NCBI RefSeq assembly: GCF_004010195.1
Contig: NC_057749.1
Location: 13,885,759 to 13,905,758 of the forward strand
Reading direction: 5' to 3'
From: Chiloscyllium plagiosum
Taxonomy: Eukaryota
DNA length: 20,000 bases
In this document: positions 831 to 20,000 of the stretch, one piece after another
How the letters are laid out: every line of letters begins with the position of its first letter
Numbering within the stretch: the stretch's first letter is position 1
Notes under the pieces: generated by a model
The model's database searches: none
Told to the model about the DNA's origin: nothing
Seen by the model: the letters and a program-made list of their open reading frames with translations, nothing else
Made by a program: the position numbers and the translations under genes

Positions 831-2155
831 CTTTTTGTATCCAATATCGTTTCTTCTTGTGGGAGGACACCACATTGTTGGCAATGTGAAACTTACATCT
901 TTCTCTGTCTCTTCTGTCATGACTCAGTATAGCTCTACTCTAAAAATGAACACTGACCATAATATGTGTCTGCTGACATTTAGGTAGAATGGCTTCAGAT
1001 GTAAAAGGCAACCTAGGAAGTGGAAAAAAACACTGACATAAAGCTATTGTTTGAAATAATTAGATGATCTAAAGAGGCTGTGCAGCATAACATGAATCAA
1101 TCTATAATGCACACAACTAGGGTGAATGTTTAAGAGGCAATTGCTTGAACTGTTCTTTTTGACAAGTTTTTGAAACTAAGCAATCTCATCATGTGAAAGT
1201 AACTGCTTAGTATTTTTTGCACTTACATACAATTTTGGGCAAATTTGGGCAAATATAAAATTAAGCCTGCCCTTAGATATCTACACATCTTACCCTTTTC
1301 AATCTAGAAGCATCTCTTTGAAGATTCATAATCCAACTTTAATATGTTTCCATATTAAAGCCACAATGGTTTATGAAATCAATGAGATATATTTTGGAAG
1401 GGTATCACAACACTTGAAAGCAACTTTCCTATATAACATCAAATCTTAAACTTCCTGTAAATAATTTATTTTAATGGGACACAAAATTTAACATTGCCAA
1501 GAACTCTTTTTAACCTTTCAAGGGGAGTTAATTAACTGATTGTGCTAATTTAGAGAAAGGTGTTTGGAATTCTTGAATCAGGAAAAAGCATCTTGCTAAA
1601 CGTTGCTGCTGAATTTCTTTAAATTGAACCAACTAAATGGAGGAATCTTATGAACTTATCAGTGACTGGTGAGAATATTTTGGAGGTGAGTGAAGACAGT
1701 GTAGTCTGATTCTAGATGCAAATTATTGAATAATAATGCATTATTATTCAGATGCAAATATGCTATCAAGTTCAACACAACACACACCTACTGTACTTTT
1801 GATAACAACCTTGATTTAGATGCAGGTATTTAGAGTCAATGATTGATGCCTCTGGTGGCAGCCATCTGGATTTCCTCTGCAAGATTTGTTTATAACTGAC
1901 ATGTTTCTTAAAACAAAACTGCAGCTGCTTACAAACATGACAATGGAGTTTAAAGTCAGGTTCAACTCACTCACAAACATAGTGCGCAATCAAAAAAAGG
2001 AAAAATAAACTGCCCGCAATTAAGAACATCACTTGAATTTGAATTCACTTTTCTGTACAGTTTCTTTATAACTCCATTCAAGCAGAATTAGATTTTCCAA
2101 TCACTATTCCTGCATGGTTCCAAAGAATTCAATAAAATCACAACTCATGTTGTGG

Positions 2156-2675
2156 GTACAACCCATGGACAAAACCAACGTCATCTACAAAATTCCATGC
2201 AAGGACTGCCACAAACACTACGTAGGACAAACTCAAGAAAGTTAGCCACCAAGATACACGAACACCAGCTAGCCACAAAAAGACATGTCCCTCTCTCCCT
2301 CGTAGCCCTACACACGGATGAAAAAAACCCACCATTTTGACTGGGACAACACATCTATCCTGGGACAGGCTAAGCAAAGACATGCCAGAGAATTCCTACA
2401 GGCCTGGCACTCCAACCACAACACCATAAACAAACACAGAGATCTAGATACCATCAATCAACCCCACAGAAAACGAACAGGAAATGACATCACCACAAAC
2501 CCTGGGATCCCCATCCAGGACCAACATATAAATAGAAAACATTTCACTTGGAGGTTGCCACTGATGATGTTACCTAGCCAGGTAATGAAACGTCTGGATA
2601 TCAAACCTACAGGTCAGCGAGCAAATCTACATCCTAAACCTCAACTTGAGATACAAACCTTCACAAACCTTGCAA
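2156..2675 (+). mobile_element. 5'-truncated Penelope-like element (Poseidon-like): GIY-YIG endonuclease C-terminus plus 3' terminal repeat
   Basis: Frameshifted translation PMDKTNVIYKIPCKDCHKHYVGQT-RKLATKIHEHQLATKRH...HHFDWDNTSILGQAKQRHAREFLQAWHS. VIY...YVG is the GIY-YIG signature with a CxxC motif. Paralogous to 19700-20000. Confidence 0.9.
2552..2608 (+). ncRNA. Minimal type-I hammerhead ribozyme motif in PLE 3' repeat (core intact)
   Basis: CCA(2558-60) CTGATGA(2561-67) T GTTACC-tagcca-GGTAAT(2569-86) GAAA(2587-90) CGTC(2591-94) TGG(2595-97). Helix I may extend through AGGTT(2552-56)/AACCT(2604-08). Confidence 0.75.
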
Positions 2676-3080
2676 AAATCACTTTAATAGTTATATAAGT
2701 GTTGGTCATTAATGCTCTCAAGCCACCTTAAAGATCTAACGGTTTTGATTCAGACTGGTCCAACTGCAATATTTTGTTACAGTTTTGATGCCAGTCTTTA
2801 AATATCCCAATGTAATGAAATGTATATCACTTCTATTTTGAGCAAAATTTTCCAAAAATAAGTATGCCAGACACATTTCTCTTATCCTGTCCTTCAGGGC
2901 ATTTCTCTCCACTAAGGACAGCTGTTCCATGGCATGAACAAAATGGGATGATCCATCTTAGCCACCTCCGAAGGTTCCCTAAGTTAGAAGTATCAGCCAA
3001 TTTTATTTACTACATGCAATATCAAAGAAATAGATGCAGAAAAATATGAGCTTTTGCAATACGTTTTATTATTAAAGAAA

Positions 3081-6050: not shown

Positions 6051-6145
6051 GTTCCTGATGAAGGGCTTTTGCCCGAAACATTGATTTTCCTGCTCCTTGG
6101 ACACTGCCTGACCAGCTATGCTTTTCCAGCACCACACTCTTGACT
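6051..6145 (+). mobile_element. Solo PLE terminal-repeat fragment starting at a hammerhead motif
   Basis: CTGATGA(6055-61) A GGGC-tttt-GCCC(6063-74) GAAA(6075-78) CATTG, then 'cctgctccttggacactgcctgaccagctatgcttttccagcaccacactcttgact', shared with 6731-6850 and 16175-16336. Confidence 0.8.
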
Positions 6146-6423: not shown

Positions 6424-6862
6424 CCCTCCACCTCCAAATCAAAGTCACCCAACAACTGGAGGAAGAACACCTCATCTTCCACCTCAGGACCCTACAACCA
6501 CACGGCATCAACAAAGACTTCACCAGTTTCCAAATCTCCTTACCCTCCCCACCTCATCCCAGATTCAACACTCCAACTCGGCACCACCCTCTTGACCTGA
6601 CCTACCTGTCCATCTTCCTTCCCAGCTATCTGCTCCACCCTCCCCACCAACCTATCACAATCACCTCCTACCTGGATCCACCTGTCGCCAACCCACCTAC
6701 CTTTCCCTCAGCCACCCTTCCCCCACCCCATTCCTGATGAAGGGTTTATGCCCAAAACATCGACTCTCCTGCTCCTCGGATGCCAATTTACCTGCTGTGT
6801 TTTTTCCAGCACCAAGCTTTTCAACTCTGACTCTCCAGCATCTGCAGTGCTCACTTTCACCC
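6424..6862 (+). mobile_element. PLE 3' fragment: endonuclease C-terminus, C-rich 3' region, decayed hammerhead
   Basis: Translation LEEEHLIFHLRTLQPHGINKDFTSF matches the PLE GIY-YIG C-terminal 'E..LIF.LGTL.P.G.N' motif. Hammerhead remnant CTGATGA(6734-40) A GGGT-ttat-GCCC AAAA CATCG. Confidence 0.85.
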
Positions 6863-7578: not shown

Positions 7579-9260
7579 TTTTACACTCCAATGAATGCAT
7601 TCACACAATGTTACAGTTGCGAGAAAAATCTTCTGCTTCCAATTAATGTTTTGCACATGCACACCGATTGGTTTTCCTGTGAGGGTTCCAAGTTAGCAAG
7701 GTCTGAGGAATGGCATTCTTTTGCTTAACCTTGGCTTTCAGCAAGCTTCTTCCATCCCCAGCTGCTCTCACTCCTTTAAACAGTGTTGAGAGCTAAAACT
7801 GAACGAAGAACATCACATTTCAGCACCTTTAAGTAATCATAAAACAAACTTTATTATGACTCTAAAAGTAAATATGCAAATACTTTCCCCAAGAATGCAC
7901 AAGGAAAAGAAATCATTCTCCAATTATCCACTGAATCATTCTTTAACATGTAGAGAAATTCCATGCTGATTAGCTGCAACCTTGCAGTCTCGTAGTATTT
8001 GATTCAGCTCCATGTTATCTGCTCCAATCAGAGCAGTTCCAAGCACCAGTAACCTGAAGCTTGTTTAGTGAACAAGGGAACACAAACAACACAAGCAGCC
8101 GGAGTGGCCCCCGTACTCGCTGGTGCGCATCTTTCCCCTTGCAGCGATGAAGGCCATTTTGTCAAGCAGGAGAGACTGGAACAAAAGTGGCTCTGAAAAC
8201 ACTGTTATGGACAGGCAGATAACAAAGTATAGATGTACAGCTAAAATTACCAATTAGTTTACCAATTGGCTGCAACGGATTCGATTGGTTTGTAATTAAT
8301 TCTAGTTTCTGGCGCATACAGCAGGACGGTTGGCGCCAACCCTTTGTCCTGCTGACACACAATACCAGTACACAAGACCCAAGGGTCCTGGACATCAATA
8401 CCTCTCTCTGCCTCACCTACAGCAGCCAATGCAGAAAATATATCCTGATGTGCTGAAACAGTGAAAAGTTCTGCTGCATGAGAAGGCGCTGACAAGAAAG
8501 AAGTCTTTATGGGCTAAGCTGTGTAACAGCAAGCTTCATGCTAAAATAAACTCCACTGGATTGTCGGACAGGTTGTCTGGTGTATGAAGGGGATTTATTT
8601 TCTGAAGGTCATGCCTGCCACACAGAAGCAACACTGAAATACAACTTTCAGACAAATTATCATCCACCGGTGCGTTCTTTTACTGAGAAAATTGATCATC
8701 CTTTTCATTTCTTTCACTGGAAATGTACTGTGACTACAGCAAACAGCAGATTCATTCATTACAAAATGTACAGGATACATAACACACACCAAACTTGTCT
8801 TGAGATGGTCCAATGCAAATACTAATGCAATTTACAAAGAAAGTGAGAGTTGTAAAAGCACATTTGCTTTGACAAGCACAACTTCGCAACAAGACAAGAT
8901 AATTGATTAGCGCTTTTCTTTCTGTTTCCGGATCAAAGAGAGCTAATTTGAGGGGGTCACGTGTTATTCTTCATAGCAAAGAACAACTGCAAAGGTTCAC
9001 TTTATCAGATTATAATTTCCACTTTTCTGAAAGGGAACTTTAATTAAAGTCATAGAATTTTCAGTGGACAATTTTTTTTTCATCCTTTGTTTACATCATG
9101 TGTTTTTTTTGAAAAATCTCAGATATGAGATATTTACAGAATATTATATTTAATGTTTCTTTGATTTCCCATTGCATTTTTGTGACATTCAACCTATGTT
9201 GATGTTTACTCTCCACACATGTCCTAAGCTCATTTCCTGTTCAATTCTTAAAACCCTTTT

Positions 9261-9288: not shown

Positions 9289-10731
9289 TCGAATTTTCCC
9301 ACTGTACATTTTCATTCAGCCATCTTTTAAGTTAAGTTCTTTCCACTGTCTACTGAAGATCTGACACTTTTCATTATTTCTCAGTTAACCATTTAGTTCA
9401 TCTCACATTCTCGTGTAAGCCAGTTCTCTTTTCTCACCAATACCAAATGTATCTGTTGAAAAAGAGAGCTATAATAATTACAGATATTTATTTAGCATTT
9501 ACTGGTTTCGTGTATTCAGGCAAAATCTTGGAAATATAGTCTAAAGACTATTATAATATTGAAAGAAATATTTAAAGTATACCATCAAAGAAAAAGCCTA
9601 GAACAATAAGATAAATGTTTCTTTATTTCTTATTTTTTCATCTCTGGTGAGACATAGCATGTCAAATGCAATGCTCTCTGAACAGGTAGTTCACTGAGTG
9701 AACTATCACTCCAGCCCAGGCGATACCTAACAGAGAATAGTGCTCAGGTAGTAGCCTCTACTTCTGAGTCTGTCTTCCAATCCCATTTGGGGTGTTGCAC
9801 CATGTTTTATAGCCAATAGCCAGATTGAACATAAAATGTGAATGAGCAAATGACTGTGCATTGAAGTAATTAAAATTTCATCATCTTTTATATTCAGTCA
9901 ACTCTGGTTATTTTAATCCTGAGCAATTGAGCAGGACTACATAAACTTCCTAAATGCAGTGAAGCTCAGCCTTCGCCTTAGGCAAAAACTGCGGTTCAAT
10001 CGTTTCATCTTCATGCCAAAGAAGATAGGATATTGAAGTGTGCAGCTTACACAGTGAGCGTTCAGCTGTAGGTTTTGTCAGGAGTCCGGAAGCCTGATGA
10101 AAATTAAAAGGAATAAACAAATTGGCACTGTGATGACAGCTTTACTATGTAACAATCCAAGAGATTCACATTGAAGCCAACAGACTTTAACATTGTGGAA
10201 TGCATCATCTCAAATTGCTGGCATCATCACTGATGGGCTGAAGTACTAATGGTTACATCCTAAATGTAAGGCAATTCAAAGTGCTGCTCCAGGCACAAGA
10301 CAGGTTTAGAATGTCAAAAAAAAGGTATAATATATGAATATTTTACACAATTCAAGTGGACACAGAAAAAGTTCACAGATGAAGTACTAAATTTTAGGAA
10401 AAAGAATAGGAAAAAATGCTGCAAGGTAGTTTCACAATTGTAGGTTTTAAATGAATATTCATGACAACGTTGTTAACACATCAGTCACATAAATCATCTG
10501 TCTCTATCTCATCAAATATTATCCCAAAAGATAGCCTTTAGCCAGAAGAAAGATTTCAAATGTTACAACAGCACTGGTAGGATGATATAAAATTTTCAAC
10601 CAGAAGATCAAAGTTTGAAGTTGACTTGACTGTACTGCTTCTGAGACAGAGTTAGGGTTCAAAGCAGACACTTGCTAACCAAAATTAATGGGATAGTTAG
10701 AGAGAGATTTCGTCAAAGGACATTTTCTTCA

Positions 10732-12740
10732 GGCTGATGTCATGAGGATCAGTAAATCCTTCTATGCCAGTCTGTATGACGCGAAGCCGACCGACAGCAC
10801 GGCCTCCCAGTCGTTCCTGTCCTCTATCACGGAGGTCTTAGACGACAGAACACGGGAGAGGCTGGACCAGCCGCTATCTCTGGATGAGCTGACCAAGGCC
10901 CTAGAGTCCTTCGAAAAGAATAAAACTCCCGGAAGCGACGGCTGACCGGTCGAGCTCTATTCCGCTCTGTGGGACTTGATTGGCCAGGACCTGCTGGAGG
11001 TGTATGTCAGTATGCTTCGGGCAAGTACCATGAGTGAATCCATGAGGAAAGACATCATCACCCTCATCTACAAGCGGAAGAGGGAAAGGGAGGACCGCAA
11101 AAATTGGAGACCAATCTCACTGTTAAACACAGACTACAAAATCTTGTCAAAGGTCATCGCCAACCGGGTCAGGTCTGCTCTAGGGTCGGTGATTCACCCT
11201 GACCAAACCTGTGCGGTGCCGGGCAGGAAGAACGCTGAGAGTCTCTCACTCCACAGGGATACAATCGCCTACGTGCAGGACAGAGGGTTGGACACCTGCC
11301 TGATCAGCCTGGACCAAGAGAAAGCCTTTGACAGGATATCACACACATATATGAGAGATGTTCTCTCCAAAATGGGCTTTGGGGAGGGAATCTGCAATTG
11401 GATCAGACTGCTCTACACCAACATTGTCAGTGCAGTCTCAATCAACGGGTGGGAATGCTGGGGCGTGCGCCAAGTCTTGGGAGGAGCGTATCAGCAAAGT
11501 GAGGCAGAAACTGGGCAGATGGAAGCTATGGTCGCTCTCCATCGCGGGAAAAAACCTGGTCATCAGGTGTGAGGCACTGTCATTGCTATTATACGTGGCA
11601 CAGGTCTGGCCTATTCCCAGAACCTGTGCCGCTGCAGTCACCCGGGCCATCTTCCAGTTTATATGGAGGTCAAAGATGGACCGAGTCCAAAGGGACTCGC
11701 TGTTCAAAGATCTGGGCAACGGGGAAAAAATACACCCAATGCCACCCTCACCCTGATGGCCACCTTTGCGTGGATGTGCGTGGGTCCCCGGTACGCAAAC
11801 ACCAAGTGTCACTACGTACTGAGGTTCTACCTGTCCCCGGTGTTGCGAAGGATGGGCCTGGCCTCGCTGCCGCGGAACACTCCGAGTAGTTGGACCGTTC
11901 CGTATCACTTGTCCTTCGTGGAGAAGTTTATGAAGAAACTTTGACCACAAGTCCATCAGGAAGTGGTCAGCACGTAGTGTCCTTGAGACCCTTCAGGAAA
12001 AGGAGAGGGCGGATCCTATCAAGCGGTTCCCTGAGCAGACTGTCAAAGCCATTTGGCAGAATGCCTCATCGCCAGAACTTTCCAACAAGCACCAAGACAT
12101 GGCTTGGCTGGTGGTGGCCTGTGAGATCCTTTATGCACGCTGCCCTTGAAGCAGCTGCGGGGGGGACGAGACTGTCACACACCTCCTTCTGGAATGTGCC
12201 GACACAGAAGTCGTCTGGAGAGGAATGCAGTGGTGTTTGTCGAGGTTCGTCCCGAGCAGCGCCGTGACGCAGGCTCCGTGCTCTATGGCCTGTTCCCCGA
12301 GACGCAAATCGAGACGAACATCAACTGTGCCTGGAGGATCATCAACTCGGTGAAGGACACACTCTGGGCGGTCCGAAACCTGTTGATCTTCCAGCTGAAG
12401 GAGTTGACCCCGACTGAGTGTTGCAGACTGGCATATTCCAAGGTCCAGGACTACATGTTGAGGGACGCGCTGAAGCTTGGGGCAGCTGCCGCCAAGGCGC
12501 GGTGGGGAAAGACCACCGTGTAATATCTGCCTGCCTTTAAGAAGAACAGGTGGCCCGCGCACTCATTTGGGCCCTGCTGATGCCTCAGCTAAAAATGCAA
12601 TTGTACAGACCTGCAAATAGGAATGATTACTCTGTTTTCGGTATGCAAACAAATGGAATGTTTACATATGTATGGCATGTCCAGTTGTACAGATCATCAA
12701 AGTATTTTATGAATAAAGTATATTTTTGAAATAAAAAAAA
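10732..12740 (+). mobile_element. Tx1-clade (L1 group) non-LTR retrotransposon, 5'-truncated, internally deleted, with poly(A) and candidate TSD
   Basis: GC/CpG-rich block. ORF2 motifs KTPGSDG*P.ELY, ITLIYK...KNWRPISLLNTDYKILSKVIANR, IHPDQTCAVPGR and SLDQEKAFDRISH; C-terminal zinc knuckle RCP*SSCGGDETVTHLLLEC; stop at 12521-23; AATAAA at 12712-17; A-tail to 12740. Flanking acattttcttca (10720-31) and acattctcttca (12742-53). Confidence 0.92.
10742..12523 (+). pseudogene. Disrupted Tx1 ORF2 (RT N-terminal half plus C-terminal CCHC region)
   Basis: In-frame TGA at 10943-45 separates two same-frame ORFs. A deletion/frameshift at ~11455 (VSINGWE joined to GACAKSWEERI) removes the QG and YADD RT motifs. 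Further frameshifts occur downstream. Confidence 0.88.
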
Positions 12741-13516: not shown

Positions 13517-14703
13517 TACATAGAGTCATAGAGATGTACAGCACGGAAACAGACCCTTTGGTCCAACCCGTCCATGCCGACCAGATATCCCAACCCAATC
13601 TAATCCCACCTGCCAGCACCAGGCCCATATCCCTCCAAACCCTTCCTATTCATATACCCATCCAAATGCCTCTTAAATGTTTCAATTGTACCAGCCTCCA
13701 CCACATCCTCTGGCAGCTCATTCCATACACGTAACACCCTATGCGAGAAAAAGTTGCCCCTTAGGTCTCTTTTATATCCTTACCCTCTCACCCTAAACCT
13801 ATGCCCTCTAGTTCTGGACTCCCCGACCTCAGGGAAAAGACTTTGCCTATTTACCCTAGCCATGCCCCTCATAATTTTGTAAACCTCTATAAGGTCACCC
13901 CTCAGCCTCCGACGCTCCAGGGAAAACAGCCCCAGCCTGTGCAGCCTCTCCCTGTAGCTCAGATCCNNNNNNNNNNNNNNNNNNNNNNNNNNNNNNNNNN
14001 NNNNNNNNNNNNNNNNNNNNNNNNNNNNNNNNNNNNNNNNNNNNNNNNNNNNNNNNNNNNNNNNNNNNNNNNNNNNNNNNNNNNNNNNNNNNNNNNNNNN
14101 NNNNNNNNNNNNNNNNNNNNNNNNNNNNNNNNNNNNNNNNNNNNNNNNNNNNNNNNNNNNNNNNNNNNNNNNNNNNNNNNNNNNNNNNNNNNNNNNNNNN
14201 NNNNNNNNNNNNNNNNNNNNNNNNNNNNNNNNNNNNNNNNNNNNNNNNNNNNNNNNNNNNNNNNNNNNNNNNNNNNNNNNNNNNNNNNNNNNNNNNNNNN
14301 NNNNNNNCCTCCAGTCTAAAAAACAACCCTCCATCACCACCCTCTGTCTTCTACCTTTGAGCCAGTTCTATATCCAAATGGCTAGTTCTTCCTGTATTCC
14401 ATGAGCTCTAACCTTGCTAATCAGTCTCCAATGGGGAACCTTACTGAAGTCCATATAGATCATATCTAAGGCTCTGCCCTCATCAATCTTCTTTGTTGCT
14501 TCTTCAAAAAACTCAATCAAGTTTGTGAGACATGATTTCCCACATACAAAGCCATGTTGACTATCCCGAATCAGTCCTTGCCTTTCCAAATACATGTACA
14601 TCCTGTCCCTCAGAATTCCCTCCAACAACTTGCCCACCACCGAGGTCAGGCTCACCGGTCTATAGTTCCCTGGCTTGTCTTTACCGCCCTTCTTAAACAA
14701 TGG
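13517..14703 (-). mobile_element. CR1 (HER1-like) LINE, 5'-truncated, spanning the assembly gap
   Basis: Minus-strand FKKGGKDKPGNYRPVSLTSVVGKLLE...QHGFVCGKSCLTNLIEFFEE...YMDFSK, and after the gap LSYRERLHRLGLFSLERRRLRGDLIEVYKIMRG...TRGHRFRVRG. Tail 'ctctatgactctatg'. Confidence 0.95.
13967..14307. other. Assembly gap (341 N)
   Basis: Run of N within the CR1 copy. Confidence 1.
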
Positions 14704-16144
14704 CTACAGCAAACGATAGAATAACAACACTTATAATACGCATCATTCCTTATTGCTCAATATATAGATGTAATAGCCAAGAGTAGGAAGGAAACTGTTA
14801 GCAACTTAAAAGGCCTGTTTAACATCGCATGTAATTGCTACCACACTGTGTGTTTCGGCAAAATCTAGCTCCATGAAAGGAACTGTTCTACTTCCCGAAA
14901 AGCTACTATTGTAATTTATTATCAGACCCATTAGCCAGACGTATCAAGCTATTTGCAGTTTAAATACATGAATTTTGAGCTATTAACTGCTGTTGCATAT
15001 CCTAAGGCACTGTCTCTAGCTCGGAACGATAAAGCAGAAAAAAAAGCTGATCTTCTTATATGGCTAACAGTCCATAAACTAACCACAATTTTTGCATCCA
15101 CACTTGCAACCTAAACCAGGTAGTAGAGCCCCTGTCAACTAAGCACATGACATTATACGGATTGTCAGAATTACACTGCAATCAATTACTGTAGAAGCAT
15201 ATAAAAGGATTATTGTCACAATTCAGATTATTTTCAAATCCTTGAAGTAGTTTTATATTCTATAACAAAATATCATATCCCAGTTGAGCTTAAATGATGT
15301 CCATTAATGATTCAAATTGTCGTTTCACAGCATTTGTGCCATGGAAAATTTTATCGGTTGATTCAGACTCTGATTGGCCAAGCCGTGAATGCTCCATCAA
15401 TAGGGGGTTGGAAAACATGTCCTTCATCAGGCATGTGTATTCCACTAGATATCAACACAGAACTGAGTGAAAGACCTCCTGTTACAGCTCACTACAAATC
15501 TGTAATGCCGGCTTTGGACTCTCCATTTTCTGTCACAGAGACAAGCTAATCAAATGGCGCGTTCCATTCTAGAGAGTTAATGCCATTTAATATTGGACTT
15601 CTGTAACAGTCAATAAGACTGAAACAACACATTTCTCCACATGCAACATAGCGAAAGTGAAATTAAAGTCTATACATATGGCAGGAGAACCTTTTTCTAT
15701 AGTAATAACCAACATATTACTCATGCATGCTCAAACATGACAACTGTATTTCAGTTAATACTTCCTGCTTTGGATTTAATAATTCATTCCAGTTAGTCAA
15801 CAACAACACTGACAGTACAGGGTGTCGTCAGAGATTTAGGGCTGCATTTCTGAAAATCATAATTTTAAGTGAAATAACTTTAAATGAAGCATAGTTTTCC
15901 ATACTAAAACCAAATGTTAGGCTCCTAAGGAAATTTTTATTCAAAAAAGTCAATGGAAAAGTTGAAATATTGCACTTTCATGTACAGTGCCGTGCATTCC
16001 TTGCAAAAATACTTGCAAACAAAACAAGGAAAGCTTCAGAGAAGAAACCAGACACCTTGCTTGCAAAGCAGTCTTTCGAGAGGTTTGCCATACAATGCAG
16101 GTTCCTCAACTATTGTATCTGTATGAGTATAGTACAGTACAGGA

Positions 16145-16337
16145 GAAAATGAGGACTGCAAATGCTGGAAATCAGAGTCAAAAAGTGTGGTGCTGGAAAA
16201 GCACAGCTGGTCAGGCAGCATCCGAGGAGCAGGAGAGTCGACATTGTAAGCATAAGCTTTTCATCCTGATTCAGCTCCCCTGCTCCTCGGATGCTGCATG
16301 ACCAGTTATGCTTTTCCAGCATCACACTTTTGACTCC
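16145..16337. repeat. Fold-back pair of PLE terminal-repeat fragments (~59-bp inverted arms)
   Basis: Arm 16175-16233 'gagtcaaaaagtgtggtgctggaaaagcacagctggtcaggcagcatccgaggagcagg' and arm 16279-16336 'cctgctcctcggatgctgcatgaccagttatgcttttccagcatcacacttttgactc'. Same family as 6051-6145. Confidence 0.85.
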
Positions 16338-17080: not shown

Positions 17081-17608
17081 AACAGAAAAACAGAAATTGC
17101 TGGAAAGGCTCAGCAGGTCTTGTAGCATCTGTGGAAAGAAGTCAGAGTTAACTTTTCAGGTTCATTCAGAACTGATCGTAGCTAGGAAAAAGTTGGCTTT
17201 TATGTAGAAGATAAGGTGGGGGGGGGGGGGTGAAAAGGTAAATGATAGGCAGAGATCGCCCAGAGACAAGCCCAAAGAGAGAGATTTGGACTGACAAAGG
17301 AGTGGATAACAATCAGTTTGGAAGAATAAACAGCTATTAGTGGACAATGCAGTAGCTAATGATGGGTGTTGTGTAATGGCAGACCATGTGATAACAAGGC
17401 CTGGTGTGTGGGAGTTGAGTATGGGAATGGGAGAAAGTGCCTCAAACCCTAAAATTGTTGAATTCGGTATTGAGTCCAGAAGTCTGTAGAGTTCCCAAAC
17501 AGAAAATGAGGTATTGTTCTTTCAGTTTGTGCTGAGCTTCACTGGAGCACTGCAGCAAACCTGAAACAGAGATATTAGCCAGGGAACACGATGATGTGCT
17601 GACGTGGC
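17081..17608 (-). mobile_element. PLE 3' fragment, same family as 18585-19070; hammerhead partly deleted
   Basis: Reverse complement reads ANISVSGLLQCSSEAQHKLKEQYLIFCLGTLQTSGLNTEFNNF. The terminal 'tcagttctgaatgaacctgaaaagttaactct' (17175-17144) lacks the 5' strand of stem II. Confidence 0.85.
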
Positions 17609-17904
17609 TTACATCCCTTACTTCCTGTCCTTTTTATAGACAGGAAGTAAGGGATGTTAAAACAGGGAATGGCAATTTAAATGAGGGTGGGGCACATGAA
17701 AGAAAACATTAAAGCAGAAGAAAACTTTGAAAGGGGAGACAGCAAACAAGGACTCCAATATAATGTGATGAGCAAACCAGCAGATTTTACATTTCATCCC
17801 TTCAGAAACGTTATTCCAATATTAATAATAAATTTAATAAACAACGCCATTTCCAGCTATCCACTCATGTTTGTAAGTGATCAGCATTGAAAAAGAAAAA
17901 GAAC

Positions 17905-18060
17905 ATAACCATCTAGCCTGTTATCACAATTTTCCAAAGAGCTTTAGGCACCAATTAATTACTTTTGAAAAAGTCTGAGTCTTTAAGTAAACATACTAGC
18001 CAATTTCCACACAGTAATATCGCATTAACAGAAATGAATGACTGGTTCAATTGCATTTTT
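17905..18060 (-). mobile_element. DeuSINE-like 3' remnant
   Basis: 'ccaaagagctttaggcaccaattaattacttttgaa' and 'agccaatttccacacag' resemble the reverse complement of the SacSINE1/AmnSINE1-like 3' portion, from recall. Confidence 0.5.
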
Positions 18061-18065
18061 TAATT

Positions 18066-19070
18066 AAAACCCAAAAGAACTGTGGATGTTGGAAAGCAGA
18101 GACAAAAACAGAAATTGCTAGAAAAGCTCAGCAGGTCTGATCACATCTGTGGGGCCTAGTTACCATCATCCCTGAACCAGAACGTTAACTCTGAATACTC
18201 TCCACAGATCCTACCAATGACCTGCTCAACTTTTCCAGCAATTTCTGTTTTTGTTTCTGATTTCTAGCATCCGCAGTTCTTTCCATTCTTGTTTAGTGTT
18301 TAATTCACTGCCACATATCTTCCAGGTATGCCCACCTTGAGGAAGTTCTGTTCCTCTCTCTGGAAGGATCTCCATTCCAATCTTTTCTCTTGTCCACTTT
18401 CATTAATTTCACTGTCACTCCTGGTGTTTGACAAGGTACTTGCTAAAACTTGTTTCCACACCACATCACATTCCTCAGTGACTGCCTCCGGCTCAGACTC
18501 TCACCATGAGGATCCCAACTCAAGAATCATCCTTCATATTTTGAATCCACCCAGGTCCATAGATATCTCAGTGATGTTCAACTGCCACTTCAATGCACCA
18601 TCGTGTTCTCTGGCCAACATCTATGTCTCAGGCTTGCTGCAGTGCTCCAGCATAGAAGTGCACCTCATTTTCTGCTTGGGAACTCTTCAACCTTCTGACT
18701 CAATATGGAGTTCAACAATTTTAGGGCTTGAGGCACCCTCTCGCATGCCCTTAAACCAACCCCCACACACTAGGCCTTGTTAACATATGGTCTGGTATTA
18801 TACACAACTCATTGTTAGCCACTAACAATCCCCATTAGTAGCTATTCATTCTCCTAGGCTAATAATTTGTCTGTCCAACTGTTCTCTCTCTTTGGGCTCT
18901 AACTCCACCTATTGTTTACTCCTTATCCCCACCCCAACCCTATCTTCTGCATTAGAAAAACAACTTTTTCCTGGCTGTGATCAGTTCTGAGGAAAGGTCA
19001 CTGAGCCTGAAACGTTAATTCTGATTTATCTCCAGAGGTGCCACCAGACCTGCTAAACTTTTCCAGCAAT
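18066..19070 (+). mobile_element. Internally deleted, non-autonomous PLE retaining inverted partial repeat, 5' repeat, ORF start, EN C-terminus and 3' repeat with hammerhead
   Basis: Inverted arms 18074-18152 and 18202-18282. ATG at 18328, then VFDKVLAKT.FH and (after a frameshift) HITFLSDCLRLRLSP*GSQL, a PLE N-terminal FLxxCLxxxLxPxG-like motif. This jumps to CHFNAPSCSLANIYVSGLLQCS...HLIFCLGTLQPS (EN end). The 3' repeat at 19010-19070 matches 18180-18242. Confidence 0.8.
18981..19024 (+). ncRNA. Minimal type-I hammerhead ribozyme motif (core intact)
   Basis: AGTT(18983-86) CTGAGGA(18987-93) A AGGT-cactga-GCCT(18995-19008) GAAA(19009-12) CGTT(19013-16) AATT(19017-20). Confidence 0.7.
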
Positions 19071-19111: not shown

Positions 19112-20000
19112 CAGACAATTATGTAGAGACTAGAACGAACAGCCCTCCCCACAATCAACCCAAGCTTTGTGTCTGCTCTGTGGATGACAGCTTTGTCATC
19201 ATGAAACGTTTCAAATTAGAAGAAACCTACAATATCATTAACATCCTTACTGGCATAAATTTCACCAAAGAGGAACACAACAACTCCAGACTTCCCTTCC
19301 TAGATGCCACAGTGGAACAAACAGTCAACTGCAGACCAGCGTCGATAGAAAAGCAACACACACAGACCAGATACTCAACTACGGGAGCAATCGTCCCAAC
19401 AGCCACAAACAGAGCTGCATCAGGACATTATTTAAACGGGCCACAACACGCTGCAGCACCCAAGAGCTATGAGAAGAAAAGTACCGATACAACAACATTA
19501 TCAAGAACAACGGGTACCCAATAAGCACAGTCCATTGATTCTTAAACAACAAACCCAAACAAGAAGACACAACATGCCCACAGACTCTAGCCAAACTACC
19601 GTACATCAAAGACATCTCGGAGATAACAACCAACTACCCCGACCCCTTGGCATCATGGTAGCTCACAAACCTACCAACACACGGAAACAGCTACTAATGA
19701 GCTGAAAGGATCCTGTACCAACAGCCAGCAAAACAAATGTCATATACAAAACACCCTGCAAGGGCTGCAACAAACACTAGATCGGACAGAAAGGTAGGAA
19801 ACTAGCCACCAGGATACATGAGCACCAACTAGCTACCAAAAAACATGACCAACTATCACTAGCATCCTTACAGACAGACAAAGAAGGACACCACTTTGAC
19901 AGGGACAAAACATCCATCCTAGGACACACATGGGAATTCCTCGAGGCCAGGCATTCAAACCCGAACTCCATCAATAAATACATTGATTTGGACCCCATAT
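19112..20000 (+). mobile_element. Penelope-like element (Poseidon-like) RT C-terminus plus GIY-YIG endonuclease, decayed, running off the window
   Basis: VDDSFVI (YVDD motif decayed), INFTKEEHNNSRLPFLD, TSVDRKATHTDQILNY.SN.P.SHKQSCIRTLFKRA, LPYIKDISE and KTNVIYKTPCKGCNKH*IGQKGRKLATRIHEHQLATKKH. Confidence 0.92.

Follow-up and report, generated by a model that had tools for sequence, protein, structure and literature searches.

An intact-core hammerhead ribozyme lying behind a broken Penelope endonuclease in the genome of the shark Chiloscyllium plagiosum raises the question of whether the motif is still a working ribozyme or a relic of the element that carried it. The motif is found in a 20,000-nucleotide stretch of contig NC_057749.1 that we analysed as a whole (the window), and all coordinates given here are those of the window. 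The first-pass annotation had proposed residual self-cleavage for this copy, if transcribed on the plus strand, and cutting of a host pre-mRNA, if intronic, and we find support for neither proposal. The motif is very probably a minimal hammerhead (min-HHR) of the Penelope-like element (PLE) terminal repeat (pLTR), carried as a passenger of a 5′-truncated Penelope/Poseidon-type insertion, drifted, and most likely inert.

Direct reading of the plus strand places the minimal hammerhead at 2558-2597, with every core base present and no mismatch. Helix I is formed by the 5′ arm CCA (2558-2560) and the 3′ arm TGG (UGG, 2595-2597), which pair over 3 bp, while the core consists of an intact C3-A9 segment, CTGATGA (CUGAUGA, 2561-2567), and of GAAA (G12-A15.1, 2587-2590). 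Stem-loop II (2569-2586) is 6-7 bp long, with GTTACC (2569-2574) pairing to GGTAAT (2581-2586) over 6 bp and an additional U·G pair at 2575/2580, and its pair probability is 0.69-1.0 in all three fold contexts (71, 181 and 351 nt). In place of helix III there is a palindrome, ACGT (ACGU, 2590-2593), and the GTC (GUC) triplet at 2592-2594 predicts a cut after C2594. The first-pass annotation had read the core, stem II, helix I, palindrome, triplet and cut site in the same way, and its anatomy is complete except for two omissions. The first is an extra T (U) at 2568, between A9 and G10.1, whereby A9-U-G10.1 spells ATG (2567-2569), the probable start codon of the element's ORF. The second is the closing pair of stem II at 10.1-11.1 (2569/2586), which is G·U where the min-HHR class has G-C. 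Across an internal loop, helix I is extended by a distal helix of 5 bp (2552-2556 with 2604-2608), which accounts for the outer limits of 2552-2608 originally assigned to the motif; the pair probability of this distal helix is 0.53-1.0 in the 71-nt fold and 0.04-0.08 in the 351-nt fold. The outer pair of helix I is C-G in the window copy and U-A in many family contigs, and seems to be compensated, with the two sides read from unlinked loose contig ends.

The hammerhead is part of a solo repeat copy of 533 bp on the plus strand, at 2142-2674, delimited by a jump in contig depth, by loose contig ends and by a candidate target-site duplication. When the contigs of four public runs are placed on window positions 1800-3000, depth is ~10-20 on the flanks vs 10^5-10^6 inside ~2150-2670, with the climb from ~18 to 10^5-10^6 falling between bins 2128-2168 and 2661-2701. 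The hammerhead bin of run X1 reaches ~5x10^4 times the flank, a depth ratio that is no copy number, and the Penelope family is plainly very abundant. Loose contig ends fall at 2156 and 2672, and similarity to the repeat family begins at ~2156, 14 nt inside the insertion start at 2142, which leaves 2142-2155 unassigned. The longest direct match between the junction regions is an 8-bp repeat, AAAATCAC, at 2134-2141 and again at 2675-2682, both on the plus strand and at the edges of the depth jump. This candidate duplication suggests insertion of 2142-2674, and in AT-rich DNA a repeat of this length could be chance. Within the insertion, tblastn and six-frame reading recover a broken C-terminal GIY-YIG endonuclease fragment at 2156-2500 (+), with the motifs VIY (2180-2188), CxxC (2198-2209) and YVG (2219-2227) and with frameshifts near 2232 and 2325, the former an indel relative to the family. 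Its match to the zebra-shark PLE protein P0001 (tblastn E 4.6e-38) bears out the Penelope origin initially proposed for it, and its pieces are 71% and 85% identical, in different frames, to the bamboo-shark protein P0003. Pfam GIY-YIG gives no match for the window's endonuclease pieces themselves. In the relatives P0002 and P0003, an RVT_1 match (above the cut-off in P0002) is followed by a GIY-YIG match below the cut-off, so that a C-terminal GIY-YIG after the reverse transcriptase in one ORF is the relatives' layout, of which the window copy retains the endonuclease end only. The hammerhead lies directly 3′ of this fragment, on the same strand and within the repeat, which is the pLTR position, and the P0001 translation reads through the hammerhead motif downstream of its endonuclease (14/24 residues). 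Self-blastn and motif scans detect no second pLTR copy in the window, and the hammerhead is the single one in the insertion.

Which PLE clade this stump belongs to can be approached through its cysteine motifs and its 3′ end. The Penelope/Poseidon clade of EN+ PLEs is described as having a CCHH motif and lacking a CX2-5CxxC linker (PMC8557442). The CxxC of the window copy falls within the GIY-YIG motif, and the CX2-5CxxC linker finger is absent by inspection from P0001-P0003, the window copy itself extending over no linker region; a CxxC inside GIY-YIG together with linker-less relatives would fit Penelope/Poseidon. A close parallel in layout is the Anolis carolinensis Poseidon (PAc): its ORF begins at stem II, its cut site lies 26 nt past the start codon, and its reverse transcription initiates within an A/C-rich stretch, 111-118 nt into the ORF (PMC11167929). 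Likewise, the window copy has its ATG at stem II and a predicted cut 27 nt from the A of ATG, while the segment following helix I (2598-2674, +), the tail, is the start of the next ORF unit and ends in an A/C-rich tract. The insertion's 3′ end thereby lies 108 nt after the ATG at 2567, i.e. ~110 nt into the ORF (+108 in the window vs +111-118 in PAc). PAc also carries a C-terminal GIY-YIG, like the window copy's family, but is intact, tandem and expressed, whereas the window copy is a solo, frameshifted 533-bp stump (PMC11167929). Read in the frame of the ATG, the motif gives MMLPSQVMKRL, and the N-termini of two full-length ORFs read MMSSRLVTKRL (P0006) and MPPRMVVKRL (P0008); this likeness is by eye and not significant, P0006 giving no alignment and P0008 an E of 0.16.

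The min-HHRs of metazoan PLE pLTRs, among them those of the fish elements Xena, Poseidon and Neptune, were described in 2014 (PMC4209133), and the identity that the first-pass annotation gave to the motif, a minimal type-I hammerhead of a PLE terminal repeat built to cut as a dimer, is right and matches that description. The window copy shares with the class its type-I topology, the absence of helix III, palindromic positions 15.2-16.2, an extra base after A9, a long helix II and a short helix I whose outer part is poorly defined, and min-HHRs likewise occur mostly as single motifs in truncated copies (PMC4209133). Published lengths of helix II and helix I are 7-8 and 4-5 bp in Schistosoma and 6 and 2 bp in Drosophila virilis (PMC4209133). 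Unlike the class, the window copy has a helix I of 3 bp plus a distal 5 bp, and its 10.1-11.1 pair is G·U although the class strongly conserves G10.1-C11.1, a consensus trait that stands outside the descriptor of that paper (PMC4209133). The motif is most aptly placed in this known class as a decayed member, departing from the consensus in that one trait. Sharks are unnamed among the min-HHR hosts in the available text of PMC4209133, and a literature search on shark PLE hammerheads returned no relevant paper, though supplements may list shark motifs. Two neighbouring classes were considered and rejected. The non-LTR retrozymes of animals, reported from one chondrichthyan, also carry a type-I hammerhead that originates in the terminal repeat of a PLE, and dispersed monomers are common among them too; they are non-coding tandem units with at least 2 hammerheads, whereas the window motif is single, non-tandem and accompanied by endonuclease coding sequence (Li, Clavereau and Pollet 2026, bioRxiv 10.64898/2026.07.22.740005). 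A canonical type-I hammerhead (Rfam Hammerhead_1, RF00163; the Schistosoma Sm-alpha type) has the same catalytic core and UH rule, but the window copy is without helix III, without a recognisable loop II-helix I contact and without an Rfam match. Further afield, the exact pattern of the family motif has no match in metagenome and viral contigs, and a protein-based search of viral contigs found no PLE relative, while that of metagenomes recovered 80 distant PLE loci of at most 46% identity. Near the ORFs of these 80 loci we scanned with a full descriptor comprising the core, a stem II of at least 4 bp, a helix I of at least 3 bp, the palindrome and UH; all six matches (five distinct) have the extra base after A9, and all six have G-C at 10.1-11.1, which the scan did not require. 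These six hammerheads (L001, L002, L004, L005, L045 and L073), on contigs that are probably host DNA, lie on the strand of the ORF in three cases and on the opposite strand in three.

The insertion is old. Its left junction is spanned in organisms B and C by single contigs that differ from the window at 18/682 and 26/768 letters respectively, and since the left junction is common to both organisms the insertion predates the split from them. The rule applied to junctions asks for 31 letters inside the element, and only the left one was counted because the right-junction contigs of B and C reach 12 and 23 letters. In the flank, at 1965/1966, the contigs of both organisms carry ~70 extra bases relative to the window. 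The window copy has also diverged from its family. There are 14 listed positions where the window copy has one letter and at least 92% of the X1 family depth another, and the copy lacks ~16 nt of family sequence directly upstream of the motif, near 2540. Among the differences listed, to which 38 more can be added, none falls within 2558-2597.

How such a copy could arise may be pictured from the design of the active element. In tandem copies, the hammerhead would overlap the ORF start codon, and it would cut after GUC only when two copies pair via their ACGU palindromes and so build helix III, or alternatively when the element's protein aids hammerhead folding. Reverse transcription would start ~110 nt downstream of the ATG and, in the window copy, would have stopped ~530 nt later, so that what was inserted would be the endonuclease end with a single hammerhead and a short tail behind it. 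This copy would then have drifted, its core staying intact by chance and a G·U pair being acquired, in a stump that has neither a partner nor its own protein.

The G·U pair at 2569/2586 is probably the product of CpG decay in the window copy, because the site would otherwise be a CpG and the element is poor in CpG (8 observed vs 23.5 expected); it could instead be a subfamily trait. In P0008, an intact distant ORF, the N-terminal residues would call for U at 11.1, provided that the register holds, a hint that an intact element can have U at this position. A search for the family letter at 2586 among proteins translated through the motif gave three matches, none through the core, and then no candidate, and a literature search for measured effects of G10.1·U11.1 found none. 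Changes at the 10.1-11.1 pair reportedly lower hammerhead activity, in work by Ruffner (1990) and by Tuschl and Eckstein (1993). That the copy could still self-cleave is a claim that we do not sustain, and we infer inactivity because the copy is solo, has a G·U pair, belongs to a frameshifted ORF and is of a kind whose single motifs showed no cleavage in published work (PMC4209133).

The rival that survives best, though an unlikely one, is that the relic is weakly competent and cuts occasionally under read-through transcription, either by pairing in trans with one of the numerous transcripts of its family or with the protein of an active element, with no selected function. The core is complete, stem II and helix I are in place, the family is very abundant, and the G·U may be tolerated if P0008 is a guide. 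Min-HHR dimers do cut, at a low level (PMC4209133), and the Anolis Poseidon motif was cut when the element's protein was present, and only then (PMC11167929). Trans pairing, on the other hand, relies on a 4-bp palindrome and 3-bp helices, and the active homodimer is computed at -13.7 to -17.7 kcal/mol vs -30.2 kcal/mol for two folded monomers, i.e. 12-17 kcal/mol less favourable, in a calculation that ignores tertiary contacts and has no known-active control. The monomer fold also hides the core in a hairpin, with a probability of 0.92 in the 71-nt context but 0.46 at 181 nt and 0.10 at 351 nt, the probability of helix I likewise going down to 0.07 in the 351-nt fold; given the missing active control, these fold results count as weak evidence. 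Only one of nine Xenopus dimers is published as cut, and even the Anolis Poseidon has no RNA-seq ends at its cut site (PMC11167929). A second intact-core hammerhead in the window, at 18987-19016, was rejected as a cis partner: it lies 16 kb away, and the helix I arms of the two cannot cross-pair.

A bolder form of the same idea, which we regard as very unlikely, is that solo min-HHR stumps in general are active, host transcripts that contain them pairing in trans via ACGU, or being folded by a PLE protein, and getting cut. Dead Penelope stumps would then make up a genome-wide, concentration-dependent RNA-cleavage system, with the window insertion as one retained site. As found, the motif has little significance, being one more instance of a type known since 2014, although the layout of PAc, with its ATG at stem II and its 3′ end ~110 nt into the ORF, is now seen in a shark element. 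The matter would gain weight were solo copies shown to cleave host RNA inside cells, given that shark genomes appear to hold very many and that the role of PLE hammerheads is not settled. For such a test the G·U pair makes the window copy ill suited, and a young copy that has G-C and lies in a sense-strand intron would be preferable.

Less likely again, and in our judgement extremely so, is domestication of the motif as a cis-acting RNA element that cuts or ends a host transcript, for example from an intron, and is kept by selection. The insertion is old, common to three organisms and intact in its core, and domesticated intronic hammerheads exist in mammals (PMC6155905). The motif has gained no helix III, though, and the conserved G-C pair is absent. 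A Pfam scan of 217/311 stop-to-stop frames of at least 34 aa, the remaining 94 lying in known repeats and being skipped, found no host exon, short exons being of a size that may escape such a scan. The proposal that the motif could cut a host pre-mRNA gains no support from the frames scanned. Two weak Pfam matches below the cut-off, TMEM170 and CDPF1, were both rejected as host genes, and run X16, which we guess to be RNA, covers the repeat family and almost none of the unique flank, which makes it uninformative for the window locus. Survival of the core is likely by chance: all 13 core bases persist with a probability of 0.51 in a copy that has diverged by 5%, and of 0.25 in one that has diverged by 10%; on this model selection is not needed to explain the intact core, and because of these values a large family would be expected to hold many such cores.

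The remaining possibility is a chance arrangement that is no hammerhead at all. The two core boxes alone match five times in the window against a shuffle mean of 2.22, with at least five in 11/200 shuffles, and by themselves are weak, not significant evidence. The fold is of unremarkable stability (z -1.85, with 12/200 shuffles equally good). The Rfam search that the first-pass annotation had put forward as a check returned no hammerhead, whether on the whole window (0/12 matches) or on 181 nt around the motif at E up to 10 (0/4 matches), a miss that we infer is due to the missing helix III and is to be expected for such a hammerhead. Chance nonetheless has a negligible probability, as the full descriptor matches the window twice, at 2558-2597 and 18987-19016, and none of 1000 dinucleotide shuffles, and the motif stands at the usual PLE hammerhead site with class features beyond the chance model.

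The preferred reading, a drifted min-HHR in a truncated insertion, concerns one of several repeats in the window. At 19147-20000 (+) there is a second, longer Penelope-type copy, broken by stops and frameshifts, in which both reverse transcriptase and endonuclease are recognised (tblastn E 3e-96); over 286 nt it is 71% identical to the copy at 2142-2674. It runs past the window end, and its hammerhead would be expected ~100 nt beyond. The intact-core hammerhead at 18987-19016 (+) belongs to another repeat family; its stem II and helix I are 4 bp each, its triplet is GUU, and in the one-extra-base register its 10.1-11.1 pair is A-U. Two decayed hammerheads of a third, short repeat family lie at 6055-6082 and 6734-6761 (+), one without the palindrome and the other without G12; two of the three other window motifs, these two, have thus lost core bases where 2558-2597 did not. 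Fold-back (inverted) repeats of the same short families, at 16181-16331, 17086-19070 and 18074-18282, have arms of 35-70 nt with 80-91% complementarity and look like inverted pLTR insertions. Elsewhere, GC is elevated at 8070-8500, a region with several CCAAT-like boxes and, near 8143, a possible splice acceptor; it has no Pfam match and could be a promoter or a non-coding exon. A near-perfect 49-nt hairpin at 17610-17658 gives weak microRNA-precursor matches, far below gathering scores. Two LINE fragments are also present: a GC-rich, frameshifted one at 10700-12530 (+) with a reverse transcriptase (Pfam RVT_1 E 5e-17), and one at 13520-14710 (-), interrupted by an N gap at 13967-14307, which from its peptide we take to be CR1-like.
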